From Candidatus Helarchaeota ASGARD archaeon Hel_GB_B (GTDB lineage: Archaea; Asgardarchaeota; Lokiarchaeia; Helarchaeales; HEL-GB-B), in the NCBI GenBank assembly GCA_005191425.1, contig SUPR01000083.1:1-15072 (forward strand): 15,072 nucleotides of DNA, read 5' to 3'. Every line of letters begins with the position of its first letter. Position 1 is the first letter of the stretch. Below the pieces are notes generated by a model. That model had not been told where the DNA came from, did not search any database, and saw only the letters and a program-made list of their open reading frames with translations. The translations under genes were made by a program, and so were the position numbers. Shown in pieces: positions 4,160 through 11,307 of this stretch.

Positions 4160-4224
4160 TTTAATAAAATTTAAAAACGATTAATTGATTTAGATAATAA
4201 AAAATGCCGGGATAGCCAAGCGGT

Positions 4225-4251
4225 ATTAGGTATTATTATATCTAAAGTTAA
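4225..4251 (+). other. tRNA-Ser intron 1 (27 nt, position 20/21, relaxed BHB)
   Basis: 8-bp inner hairpin TTAGGTAT/ATATCTAA, bulges GT^A and AA^A, central helix AGCG/AGTT (one G-A mismatch, one G-U). Removal gives the normal D-arm GCCAAGCGGTACGGC. The spliced product cannot distinguish this from a 1-nt shift (21/22); BHB geometry favours 20/21. Confidence 0.8.
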
Positions 4252-4284
4252 ACGGCGACAGGCTCGAGACCTGTTGGTCATCTG

Positions 4285-4314
4285 TCAAAATATCATTAGA
4301 TATTATTGGATGAA
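4285..4314 (+). other. tRNA-Ser intron 2 (30 nt, inside the variable arm)
   Basis: Perfect 4-bp central helix CATC/GATG, bulges TG^T and AA^A, inner hairpin AATATC-ATTA-GATATT. Removal restores a 4-bp variable stem GGTC/GACC. Confidence 0.85.
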
Positions 4315-4351
4315 ACCTCATGAGTTCGAATCTCATTCCCGGCGTCATCCA

Positions 4352-6525: not shown

Positions 6526-6541
6526 AAAGAAAAATTAAAAA
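6526..6541 (-). terminator. Probable oligo(T) terminator of tRNA-Leu
   Basis: The minus strand reads TTTTTAATTTTTCTTT beginning 2 nt after the discriminator. Confidence 0.5.
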
Positions 6542-6556
6542 GTGCGGGGAGTGGGA

Positions 6557-6572
6557 TTTTCGGATTTTCTCT
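6557..6572 (-). other. tRNA-Leu intron 3 (16 nt, T-loop position 59/60)
   Basis: Central helix TTCG/CGAA (4/4 pairs), bulges AA^A and AA^T, outer helix is the T-stem. Removal gives TTCGAAT. Confidence 0.88.
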
Positions 6573-6589
6573 TTCGAACCCACGCAGGC

Positions 6590-6612
6590 TAGCGCTATGA
6601 TTTGATTCATAT
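6590..6612 (-). other. tRNA-Leu intron 2 (23 nt, variable arm)
   Basis: Central helix GCGT/GCGC, bulges AG^A and TA^G, inner helix TATGA/TCATA. Removal gives GGC-GTAG-GCC. Confidence 0.88.
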
Positions 6613-6626
6613 CTACGCCACTGGGT

Positions 6627-6660
6627 ATCTCAAACCAATTATATGCACTATAATAGGGAG
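6627..6660 (-). other. tRNA-Leu intron 1 (34 nt, canonical position 37/38)
   Basis: C32-A35 (CTCA) pairs perfectly with intron TGAG, bulges GG^C and AT^A, inner hairpin ATTATA/TATAAT. Confidence 0.92.
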
Positions 6661-6720
6661 CCTGAGCCCAGTTCCTTTGGCCAACTCGGACATCCCCGCT
6701 TTTTTTATTGCTCTTTTATG

Positions 6721-6728
6721 CATTTAAA
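6721..6728 (-). promoter_or_regulatory. Possible TATA box for tRNA-Leu
   Basis: TTTAAATG lies at -29 to -22 relative to the mature 5' end. The AT-rich background limits specificity. Confidence 0.35.
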
Positions 6729-6736
6729 CAAAAGCA

Positions 6737-8524
6737 TTAGGTTCTTTTAAACTTTTTTTCAATCTCATTTTTTGAAAAAGAAATAATTGTCGGTCTTCCA
6801 TGACAACAACTAAATGGATTTTGGCAAAAACTGAGTTCTTTCACCAAATTTATCGCTCTTTCATCTGATAAAACAGTATTTGCTTTTATAGCACCTTTAC
6901 ATGACAACAAATTTACAATTTTATTTCTTAAATCTTTTAAAGATAATTTTCCTTTAATATGGATAAGTTCGTCCAATAAATCTTTAATTTCGTCCATTGT
7001 TAATATTTTTTTAAAGATGATAGGGATTCCTTTAACTATAAAAGTTGTCCCCCCAAAATGTGAGATTTCAAACCCATAATCAGATAATAATGGAATTATT
7101 TTTTTAATATCGATTAATTCACCAGGTAATAAATCGATTTTAATAGGTGAAATTAATTTTTGAGTTCTAATTGGTTTAGAGCTATTTGCTTTTAATAATT
7201 GCTCTAATCTAATTCGCTCATGAGCGGCATGCTGGTCAATTAAATAAAAGTTTTCTTCATCTGAGAAAAGTAAATATGTTTTAAATAGTTGTCCAATATA
7301 TTCCATTGGAGGTAATTTTTTTGTTTTATCGGGTTTTGATATAAGATCGGGTTTTTGCTTATAATTACCTGTTATTTTGACATTATCTACTAATAACTTT
7401 TGTTTTTTCTGGTGCTTTAAAGTTGGAATAGTATTTTTATCAGTGTGTCGAATATTCTTTTTAAATTCACTTAATTCCAACTTATTTACAGGTTCTAATT
7501 TAATTTCTCTTACTTGTTTAATATTATCAAGTACATTTTTTACTGCAATTTGAACTACATCATAAATATCATCTTCATTAATAAACCGAACTTCCTTTTT
7601 TGTGGGGTGGATATTTACATCTACAAGTTTTGGATCAATAATTATATTTAAAATGGTAATTGGATATTTATTTCGCATCAATAAAGTCCTGTAAGCGTCA
7701 AGAATTGCATTCATTATTATTGGATTTTTGATCACTCTATTATTGACAATTATTGTGATATAATATTTACTTGCCCTAATTTCTTGTAAATTAGAGGTAT
7801 ATCCGGTAATTTTAATCCAGTCATTTTGAAAATCAATTTTTAACATATTTTTTGCAACGTCAACTCCGTAGCGCCTAGCGATGTTATCTAATAGTTTACC
7901 GGTACCTGGTAAATTTAGAATTTCTCGTCCATTATGAGTTAGCTTAAATGATATTGCAGGGTTTGCAAATGCAATTAACGAGACAGTTTCAATTATGTGT
8001 CCCAATTCAGTATTAAGAGATTTCAAATATTTTTTTCGGACAGGTACATTGTAGAACAGATTTTTTACACTTATGGAAGTACCTTCAGGACATCCAATTT
8101 CAGAAATCTTTAAAATTTTTCCACCGTTGATAGTTATTAAAGTACCCGTGGTAGAATTTTTAGTCCTTGTTTTCAGCTCAATGTTGGAGACGACTGCAAT
8201 ACTGGCGAGTGCCTCTCCTCTAAAGCCAAAAGTTCTTACCATCATTAAGTCATCAAAACTTCTAATTTTACTTGTAGAGTGGCTCTCAAAAGCTAGTTGA
8301 GCATTTTTTTTACTCATACCGTGTCCATTATCAATTACAGTAATTTCTTTAAGCCCGCCATCTAAAATTATAATTTCGATTTTTGTGGCTTTTGCATCTA
8401 TCGAATTTTCTATCAATTCTTTAACCACAGAAGCGGGTCGTTCTATTACTTCACCTGCAGCTATTTGGTTTATTAATTTTTCATCTAAAATTTTAATTTC
8501 TGGCTCTAAAACAGCATCGACCAT
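6737..8524 (-). CDS. mutL: DNA mismatch repair endonuclease MutL
   Basis: QIAAGEVIERPASVVKELIENSIDA, DNGHGM, TFGFRGEALASI, VDVNIHPTKKEVRF, endonuclease motif DQHAAHERIRLE, SCK, and CCHGRP. Confidence 0.98.
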   Translation of the reverse strand: MVDAVLEPEIKILDEKLINQIAAGEVIERPASVVKELIENSIDAKATKIEIIILDGGLKEITVIDNGHGMSKKNAQLAFESHSTSKIRSFDDLMMVRTFGFRGEALASIAVVSNIELKTRTKNSTTGTLITINGGKILKISEIGCPEGTSISVKNLFYNVPVRKKYLKSLNTELGHIIETVSLIAFANPAISFKLTHNGREILNLPGTGKLLDNIARRYGVDVAKNMLKIDFQNDWIKITGYTSNLQEIRASKYYITIIVNNRVIKNPIIMNAILDAYRTLLMRNKYPITILNIIIDPKLVDVNIHPTKKEVRFINEDDIYDVVQIAVKNVLDNIKQVREIKLEPVNKLELSEFKKNIRHTDKNTIPTLKHQKKQKLLVDNVKITGNYKQKPDLISKPDKTKKLPPMEYIGQLFKTYLLFSDEENFYLIDQHAAHERIRLEQLLKANSSKPIRTQKLISPIKIDLLPGELIDIKKIIPLLSDYGFEISHFGGTTFIVKGIPIIFKKILTMDEIKDLLDELIHIKGKLSLKDLRNKIVNLLSCKGAIKANTVLSDERAINLVKELSFCQNPFSCCHGRPTIISFSKNEIEKKFKRT

Positions 8525-8530
8525 TAATAT

Positions 8531-11188
8531 CTACTCCCAGTTCTTAATCTTTTTCTGGAGTTCGAATAATTTATTTAAAGCGTTAATTGGGGACATATTA
8601 TGAATATCCAAGTTTTTTAAATCTTCAATAATTTCTTTTTCATATTTGTGATGTATTTCCTTTTTATCTTCAATTTTAGGAGTAAAGGTTAATTGGACTA
8701 TTTTTTTTCGTTTATTCTTTTTTGGGGTGAAATTGTTTTCAGTCTGAACAGTAATTTCATGCCCGCTTTCTAAGGACTCGAGTATTTCGGAAGCTCGCAT
8801 AATAACTTTATGAGGAAGTCCAGCTAACTTTGCTACTTCTATTCCGTAGGACTTATCGCAACCTCCAGGAGTAATTTGATAGAGAAAAATGATGTCGTTA
8901 TCTTTTCTCTTTACCAAAATATTATAATTTTTGATATTATCAAAATATTTAGTTAATTCATTTAATTGATGGTAATGAGTGGCGAACAATGTCCTAGCTC
9001 CAATAGTTTTTACAATATATTCTACTACTGCCCATGCAATACTCAGTCCATCAAATGTAGCGGTTCCCCTACCAATTTCATCCAGAATAATTAGACTGTT
9101 TTTTGTTGCATTATTCAAAATATTTGCGGTTTCGTTCATTTCGACTAAAAATGTCGATTGCTGTAATACTATATTGTCATATGCACCTACACGAACAAAA
9201 ATTTGGTCTACAATTCCAATTTCAGCTTTTTCAGCCGGAATAAAAGACCCCATTTGTGCCAATATAACAATTTGAGCAACTTGCCTTAAATAAGTAGATT
9301 TTCCAGCCATATTAGGGCCAGTTATAATTAATAATTGGTTCTGATTATCATCTATTAATACATCATTTGGAATGAATTTATTACCCAGTATAACATCGAG
9401 GACGGGGTGTCTACCATTTTTAATCCAAATTTTATATGAATTATTTACTTCTGGTTTAATATAATTATATAAAACTGCTACTTCAGCAAGAGAGGTATAA
9501 ATATCAATTTCGGAAATTAAATCTGAAATGGCTTGGATGGGTAGAATGTATTTTTTTATTTCCCCCAAAATCTTTAAAAATAGTTCATATTCAAGCTCAT
9601 TGACTTGTTCTTCAGCATTAAGTATTTTTTCCTCCCAAGATTTTAGTTCCTCAGTAAAAAATCGTTCTGAATTAACTAAAGTTTGTTTTTTAATATAATT
9701 TTTAGGTACCAAATGTAAATTTGGTTTGGTAACTTCTATAAAATATCCAAAAATTTTATTATATTTTACCTTGAGAGATTTTATTCCAGTCCTTATTCTT
9801 TCATTATTTTCCAATTTAATTAAAAAGTTTTTACCTTCGTCCTTTATTTTTATAAGTTCATCTAATTTACTGTTATATCCTCTCTTAATAATTCCACCAT
9901 CATGTAGGGTATTAGATGGGTCATCTTTTATAGATTTCCTGATTAATTCGGCGACCTCTAATACTTTTTCAATTAGGTCATTATTAAAAAAGTCCTTTAG
10001 TTCCTCAGTTTTTTCACTTAATATCTTATCAATTTCAGGGACTTTTTCAATTGAATTCCTTAAAGAAATTAAATCTTTGGCATTGGCAGATCCATGACTT
10101 ATTTTTCCTATAAGTCGTTCAATATCAGAGATTTCTTTTAAACACGTCCTAATATCTTGTCTTAATATTAAATCTTCTTTAAAAATTTCAATCATTAACT
10201 GTCTATATTTAATCATGTTAATATCTAGTAGAGGTTGTTTTAACCAACGTTTTAATTTTCTACTCCCCATTGGAGTTATTGTTTTATTTAAAATAGAGAG
10301 TAAAGTCCCCTCAGTAGTATCGTTCATTATGTTTCTAACTAGTTCTAAATTTCTTTGTGATGCAGCATCAATTACTAAAAAATCTTCCTGGTTATAAATA
10401 CTGAATTTCTTGATATTATTTTCTTTCAATTTTTGAATTTCTTGTAGATATAGAATAATAGCGCCAGCACTCTTGATTATTAACGGTTTATCTTCACACC
10501 CAAATCCGTGTAGGTTTAACAGACCAAAATGTTCCAAAAGAGCATTTCTTGCATTTTCTAGATCAAATATATAATCTTCTCGTGGATATATAGTCATTGA
10601 AGTATATTTTTTTAATTTATTTATTAATTCTTCATCTTTATTTATCGATTGAGGGAGGATACATTCTGTAGGATTAAAACGGACTATTTCGGATATCAAT
10701 TTTCCAATCGAGTCCTCTTCTGTATCGCCTTTTACCATTGTACCAAAAAATTCACCAGTTGAAACATCTACAAAAGCCAATCCGAACACTAATTTAGACC
10801 GTGTTATTGCTATTAGATAGTTATTCTCTTGGTCGTCTAGCATCATTAGGTCAGTTATTGTGCCAGGTGTGATCACTTTAGTGACTTCTCTTTGCACTAC
10901 TGGGCCGGATTTTTTACTTGCATCTTCTATTTGGTCACAAATAGCTACTTTGTGCCCATTATCGATCAACATTTTTATATATTTATTAACACTATGATAA
11001 GGCACACCGCTCATTGGTACCTTTAAACTCCCATAATCTTTAGCTGTCAGTACAATCTTGCAACTTTCTGCTAATATTTTTGCATCTTCGTTATAACATT
11101 CATAAAAATCGCCGACTCTAAATAATAATACTGAGTCGTTGTATTCCTTCTTAATAGCTTCATATTGTCTTAACATTGGAGTACTCAT
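8531..11188 (-). CDS. mutS: DNA mismatch repair protein MutS (MutS1)
   Basis: TPMLRQY N-terminus, mismatch-binding GDFYE, REVTKVITPGT, Walker A GPNMAGKST, Walker B ILDEIGRGT, FATHY, SYGIEVAKLAG. The start is placed at ATG 11188 (MSTPM), matching the conserved MutS N-terminus, rather than 11245 from the ORF track. Confidence 0.98.
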   Translation of the reverse strand: MSTPMLRQYEAIKKEYNDSVLLFRVGDFYECYNEDAKILAESCKIVLTAKDYGSLKVPMSGVPYHSVNKYIKMLIDNGHKVAICDQIEDASKKSGPVVQREVTKVITPGTITDLMMLDDQENNYLIAITRSKLVFGLAFVDVSTGEFFGTMVKGDTEEDSIGKLISEIVRFNPTECILPQSINKDEELINKLKKYTSMTIYPREDYIFDLENARNALLEHFGLLNLHGFGCEDKPLIIKSAGAIILYLQEIQKLKENNIKKFSIYNQEDFLVIDAASQRNLELVRNIMNDTTEGTLLSILNKTITPMGSRKLKRWLKQPLLDINMIKYRQLMIEIFKEDLILRQDIRTCLKEISDIERLIGKISHGSANAKDLISLRNSIEKVPEIDKILSEKTEELKDFFNNDLIEKVLEVAELIRKSIKDDPSNTLHDGGIIKRGYNSKLDELIKIKDEGKNFLIKLENNERIRTGIKSLKVKYNKIFGYFIEVTKPNLHLVPKNYIKKQTLVNSERFFTEELKSWEEKILNAEEQVNELEYELFLKILGEIKKYILPIQAISDLISEIDIYTSLAEVAVLYNYIKPEVNNSYKIWIKNGRHPVLDVILGNKFIPNDVLIDDNQNQLLIITGPNMAGKSTYLRQVAQIVILAQMGSFIPAEKAEIGIVDQIFVRVGAYDNIVLQQSTFLVEMNETANILNNATKNSLIILDEIGRGTATFDGLSIAWAVVEYIVKTIGARTLFATHYHQLNELTKYFDNIKNYNILVKRKDNDIIFLYQITPGGCDKSYGIEVAKLAGLPHKVIMRASEILESLESGHEITVQTENNFTPKKNKRKKIVQLTFTPKIEDKKEIHHKYEKEIIEDLKNLDIHNMSPINALNKLFELQKKIKNWE

Positions 11189-11307
11189 AAAAAGTGCACT
11201 TTCATCAAAAATTAAGAGTAAATATCTAAATATGATTTTATACAAGTGTATTAAATTATTTTCTTAAAATAAAAAAGTATAGACATTATGTCGAAAATTA
11301 AGATGTA

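Follow-up and report, generated by a model that had tools for sequence, protein, structure and literature searches.

A tRNA-Leu(CAG) gene with three predicted BHB-type introns in an Asgard archaeon

The window (the whole 15,072-nucleotide stretch of DNA that was analysed) very probably holds, at 6543..6699 of its minus strand, a functional tRNA-Leu(CAG) gene of an Asgard archaeon, whose three introns would be removed by the splicing endonuclease EndA and whose exons would be joined by RtcB. The original prediction had proposed a tRNA-Leu(CAG) with three BHB-type introns and exons as short as 14 nt, and the cloverleaf, the splice motifs and the homologues all support it. Its coordinates, its segment lengths (39/34/14/23/17/16/14 nt, exons and introns alternating) and its intron share of 73 of the 157 nt were exact.

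Gene layout, spliced product and controls

On the minus strand, position 1 of the tRNA corresponds to window position 6699 and the discriminator A73 to 6543, with no encoded CCA. According to the ARAGORN cloverleaf, exon 1 (39 nt, 6661..6699) supplies the 5′ strand of the acceptor stem, the D-arm, the 5′ strand of the anticodon stem and the loop through G37, including the anticodon CAG, and is followed at the canonical 37/38 site by intron 1 (34 nt, 6627..6660). Exon 2 (14 nt, 6613..6626) contributes A38, the 3′ strand of the anticodon stem and the first half of the variable arm, in the loop of which intron 2 (23 nt, 6590..6612) is located. The second half of the variable arm, the 5′ strand of the T-stem and T-loop positions 54-59 are provided by exon 3 (17 nt, 6573..6589), and intron 3 (16 nt, 6557..6572), at the 59/60 site, separates it from exon 4 (14 nt, 6543..6556), which comprises U60, the 3′ strands of the T-stem and acceptor stem, and A73.

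As had been predicted, joining of the exons yields an 84-nt molecule, which ARAGORN called as tRNA-Leu(CAG). The spliced product, as drawn, has stems of 7 bp (acceptor), 5 bp (anticodon) and 5 bp (T), together with a 7-nt T-loop (UUCGAAU) and a 7-nt anticodon loop (CUCAGGA) with U33 and G37. It also has the features of a class II tRNA-Leu, namely a long variable arm, A73, a Leu anticodon and a 3-bp D-stem with G13-A22. The A73 discriminator and the variable arm are identity elements for archaeal LeuRS. The unspliced locus yielded no ARAGORN call and no Rfam match, whether at gathering scores or at E values up to 10.

The tRNA is immediately preceded, on its own strand, by two mismatch-repair genes of bacterial type (window 6737-11245, minus strand), mutS (904 aa) and mutL (595 aa), and 37 nt separate the mutL stop from tRNA position 1. 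A TATA-like sequence, TTTAAATG, is found at 6721..6728 (minus strand), −29 to −22 from position 1, which is weak evidence in a genome of 28% GC; a simple motif count gave no sharp TATA positional signal upstream of the 33 tRNA genes of the genome, these regions being too AT-rich. Downstream, two T5 runs at 6530..6541 (minus strand) begin 2 nt past A73 and are a likely archaeal terminator. Queries of 701 nt and 241 nt from the locus retrieved no RNA runs containing the sequence.

We used an intron-aware parser that starts from a GC-rich acceptor-stem anchor, tests for the three other arms (T, anticodon and D) and jumps over BHB candidates, with ARAGORN serving for confirmation. The originally predicted solution ranked first of seven at this locus, with a structure score of 14 out of 15. 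The parser returned 34 loci in the real genome versus a single one in the reversed-genome decoy, the latter being a four-intron solution with weak motifs and a total score of 23, indicating that the Leu(CAG) gene is well beyond chance.

The host genome (3.54 Mb, 93.7% complete) is a metagenome-assembled draft with an estimated contamination of 4.9%, and the locus could in principle have arisen through faulty assembly or binning, for example as part of a chimeric contig or as foreign DNA. We regard this as scarcely credible, because the 157-nt gene is identical across six independent assemblies from NCBI, ENA and JGI, the entire stretch is contained within single long contigs in two metagenome runs from different studies, and the sister species has a matching gene order. 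Contigs from four DNA runs contained the full three-intron form only, with no intron-less allele; apparent spliced joints in these contigs belong to the Leu(UAG) paralog. A metagenome scan found no match to the exact intron-less exon 1-exon 2 junction, and in a gapped-pattern search for further Leu(CAG) genes carrying an insert at 37/38 the matches listed were all chance ones, in GC-rich DNA. The runs containing the sequence came from hydrothermal-vent and marine sediments.

Splice motifs and predicted processing

All three introns contain a 4-bp central helix, and in each both cut sites lie two nt 3′ of the helix strands. The original prediction had assigned every intron this helix together with two 3-nt bulges; the helix was recovered in 3 of 3 introns, but the two closed bulges were not, since only one bulge per intron is flanked by helices on both sides. 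None of the three introns has the strict hBHBh′ form, which requires helices of 2 bp or more on either side of both 3-nt bulges, and in the predicted folds the motifs are members of the accepted relaxed classes hBH or HBh′ rather than strict two-bulge BHBs.

Intron 1, with the central helix CUCA/UGAG, folds as an hBH motif that has a perfect outer helix and no inner helix beside the bulge. Its 3′ bulge, AU|A, is perfect (unpaired probability 1.0), and its 5′ site, GG|C, is without a closed bulge. For naked RNA at 37 °C, 96-98% of the predicted ensemble has this 5′ site paired (unpaired probability 0.02-0.17), through G-U, G-U and C-G pairs, and the open-bulge conformer lies approximately 6 kcal/mol above the minimum-energy fold. 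Intron 2 is of the HBh′ class, with a central helix, GCGU/GCGC, that includes one G-U pair, a clean 5′ bulge (AG|A), a 5-bp inner helix (UAUGA/UCAUA) and an outer helix of 1 bp. Intron 3, built on the central helix UUCG/CGAA with the bulges AA|A and AA|U, is an hBH-plus-loop motif that uses the 5-bp T-stem as its outer helix, and its 2-bp inner helix is left open in the fold. In the minimum-energy fold of the full precursor, all three central helices form together in non-overlapping stretches, which suggests that structure does not constrain the order of intron removal.

The genome encodes two EndA proteins, at positions 44408-44659 of contig C36 and 28593-28853 of contig C98 (both minus strand). 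The alpha subunit matches Aeropyrum pernix 3P1Z_B (E 2.5e-42) and has the catalytic motif and, in the broad-specificity loop, a lysine aligned to K44; the second, beta-like protein has lost the catalytic histidine. RtcB is represented by a 483-aa open frame with a PF01139 match of 568 bits. It has been reported that Asgard archaea have an (alpha-beta)2 EndA with an L1 loop, and that only this type and the epsilon2 type cut non-canonical introns (PMC5829648). Judged from its sequence, the host EndA matches the type predicted to be able to cut relaxed non-canonical motifs, that is, (alpha-beta)2 with the L1/CSL loop lysine.

We suggest that transcription would give a precursor of approximately 157 nt, in which EndA would cut all six sites, probably in no obligatory order. 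Until the three RtcB ligations, pairing in the acceptor, anticodon, variable-arm and T stems would keep the exon pieces of 14-17 nt together. Because intron helices tie up both the T-loop and the variable arm, these would adopt their mature shape only after splicing, and CCA, which is not encoded, would also be added afterwards. Among the 33 3′ flanks of tRNA genes in the genome, CCA is encoded after the discriminator in some, for example those of Leu(UAA), Leu(GAG), Ala(CGC) and Gly(GCC).

The paired 5′ site of intron 1 lends some weight to another reading, in which the gene is decaying or poorly processed: at least one intron, most likely that at 37/38, would be removed inefficiently, the gene would contribute little and tRNA-Leu(UAG) would read CUG. 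An enzyme could open the extra pairs at the 5′ site (two G-U, one C-G, one U-G), and hBH motifs are reported to be accepted by an (alpha-beta)2 EndA that carries the L1 loop (PMC5829648). Among the Leu codons, CUG is used least (3.3% of them), and the Leu(UAG) paralog, which is present, might cover it, so that selection on the Leu(CAG) gene could be weak; the sister species, moreover, does without the 37/38 intron. Compensatory changes relative to the sister-species ortholog nevertheless show selection on the cloverleaf, and in the exon stems ARAGORN finds no mismatch other than the usual G13-A22. Given also the identity of the gene in the six assemblies, we consider decay or poor processing improbable and favour a functional, fully spliced gene.

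Intron boundaries and history among Leu genes

In G001, the one further species of the genus, a syntenic Leu(CAG) gene is flanked on one side by MutL (61% identity) and on the other by a VWA protein (78% identity). Alignment of the two orthologs revealed an exact and unambiguous 34-nt gap at 37/38, with the other two introns at the same sites, and compensatory double changes at two anticodon-stem pairs and one acceptor pair. Further intron-less homologues were found by comparing Leu paralogs and orthologs across four genomes of the order: the Leu(UAG) gene of G005 has no variable-arm intron and carries exactly the predicted spliced arm, and the Leu(GAG) genes of both the host genome (G000) and G001 have no intron at 59/60. 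Every predicted junction therefore has a natural counterpart.

The variable-arm intron occupies the same site in six Leu genes (Leu(CAG) and five others), in which the central helix is kept. Its inner helix is 4-6 bp long and of differing sequence in five of the six; the G004 gene scores none in that register. The 59/60 intron likewise retains UUCG/CGAA in six Leu genes, with a variable inner helix. These two introns are old and common to Leu isoacceptors across the order. The paralogous tRNA-Leu(UAG) of the host genome (G000:C124:2237-2358, minus strand) shares the variable-arm and 59/60 intron sites but has no 37/38 intron; one A/G mismatch interrupts the central helix in its variable-arm intron, and the parser favoured another, non-homologous boundary for this gene.

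The 23-nt insert in the variable arm forms a conserved hairpin, with covariation in its stem across the Leu genes, a pattern that would also be seen if the insert were retained as an unusually long arm, leaving only two introns. The G005 Leu(UAG) arm, which lacks the insert, argues against retention, as does the spacing, since each of the six genes has the 4-bp helix and the AG|A bulge at the distance fixed for a BHB. Introns in the variable region are, in addition, present in class I tRNAs of the same genome, Gly(UCC) and Pro(CGG), and a 37-nt variable arm would fall outside known tRNA-Leu geometry. Retention is therefore highly unlikely, and we treat the insert as a third intron that would be spliced out.

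The 37/38 intron, in turn, is a difference between two species of one genus, and it is absent from every Leu paralog examined. The chances are about even that it is a very recent gain in a gene already bearing two old non-canonical introns. If so, comparing the two species would show, in Asgard archaea, the natural state of a gene before and after the gain of a tRNA intron, the 5′ site of the new insert still lacking a clean bulge. When the three introns were used as blastn-short queries against the genome, the matches listed were all for intron 1 and included no related copy of it; nothing among them thus suggests transposition of the kind reported for Thermoproteales. Beyond the genus, no tRNA neighbours MutL in G002-G006, a D-arm pattern gave only chance matches in those five genomes, and a class-wide pattern search of 161 genomes recovered Leu(CAG) in G000 and G001 only.

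Interrupted tRNA genes in the host genome and in other lineages

Our census of the host genome comprises 33 credible tRNA genes, of which 27 have introns (two or more in 14) and 6 have none. It leaves out one of the 34 parser loci, a four-intron Ser call on contig C154 whose total score of 25 is no better than the 23 of the decoy and which we treated as probably false. Introns at 37/38 and at 59/60 are equally frequent among the 33 genes (n = 11 each). At least four genes are solid three-intron cases, Glu(CUC), Leu(UAA), Pro(CGG) and Leu(CAG), and Pro(CGG) shares with Leu(CAG) the combination of anticodon loop, variable region and 59/60. Because introns hide most of the genes, the count from standard tools is only about 16 tRNAs for this 94%-complete genome. 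Leu(CAG) is among those missed, and no other Leu(CAG) gene was found in the genome; the main value of the result accordingly lies in annotation, as it recovers the sole gene found for a CUG-reading tRNA-Leu.

The original prediction had put three introns at about the known maximum for an archaeal tRNA. This argument for rarity does not hold, since published tables of Asgard tRNAs list, besides many three-intron genes including Leu isoacceptors, several genes with four (PMC11291895, Supplementary Data 4), and three-intron genes are ordinary in the host genome as well as known from Thermoproteales and other Asgard classes. In Thermoproteales, tRNA genes have up to three introns (PMC4033280, PMC8450103), the multi-intron genes of Pyrobaculum, Thermofilum and Caldivirga having been described by Sugahara et al. 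2007/2008, as cited in PMC4033280, PMC4090602 and PMC8450103. The present system resembles that of Thermoproteales in having up to three BHB-type introns per gene, canonical as well as non-canonical sites, relaxed hBH/HBh′ motifs, an (alpha-beta)2 EndA with the Crenarchaea-specific loop, and genes that standard tRNA finders miss. It differs in its host, which here is not a crenarchaeon but an AT-rich (28% GC) archaeon, assigned to Asgard from the PolD, the eukaryote-like actin (446 bits) and the two EAP30 proteins of ESCRT-II that its genome encodes.

Closer parallels come from Atabeyarchaeia and Freyarchaeia, in which 92-95% of tRNA genes contain introns and over half contain several (Valentin-Alvarado et al. 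2024, PMC11291895). These too are Asgard hosts with heavily interrupted tRNA genes, many of them with three introns, but they are wetland-soil lineages of other classes, and their Leu(CAG) genes have one or two introns. Outside the archaea, nuclear tRNA genes of Cyanidioschyzon merolae can likewise carry three BHB-dependent introns in one tRNA (PMC3728597, PMC9602550). There, however, the introns lie in the D, anticodon and T regions, cleavage is by the eukaryotic heterotetrameric Sen complex, some genes are also permuted, and the genes are unrelated by descent to the Leu(CAG) locus.

Since genes arranged in this way have been described in other archaea and are frequent in the host genome, we regard the locus as an annotation catch and not as a new type of gene; it changes neither the known number of introns per tRNA gene nor the known mode of splicing. 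It does show that an Asgard lineage from vent sediment belongs among the groups whose tRNA genes are heavily interrupted, and with the sister species it forms a clean presence/absence pair for the study of tRNA intron gain or loss.

Several other loci emerged from the same survey. A tRNA-Sec-like locus at G000:C9:14938-15122 (plus strand) was solved by the parser only with four introns, a count that is unreliable because the parser assumes a standard cloverleaf. Two intron-mode calls of ARAGORN, G000:C1:8017-8890 with a 783-nt intron and G000:C165:953-2662 with a 1632-nt intron, were rejected as artefacts, the latter because it spans several separately interrupted real tRNA genes (Ala, Val and Gly). 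The window itself contains a second hidden tRNA gene on the plus strand at 4206-4344. ARAGORN took it for a tRNA-Asp(GTC) containing a 44-nt intron, a miscall according to the parser, which reads it as tRNA-Ser(CGA) with two non-canonical introns, one in the D-stem/loop region and one in the variable arm, and none at 37/38.
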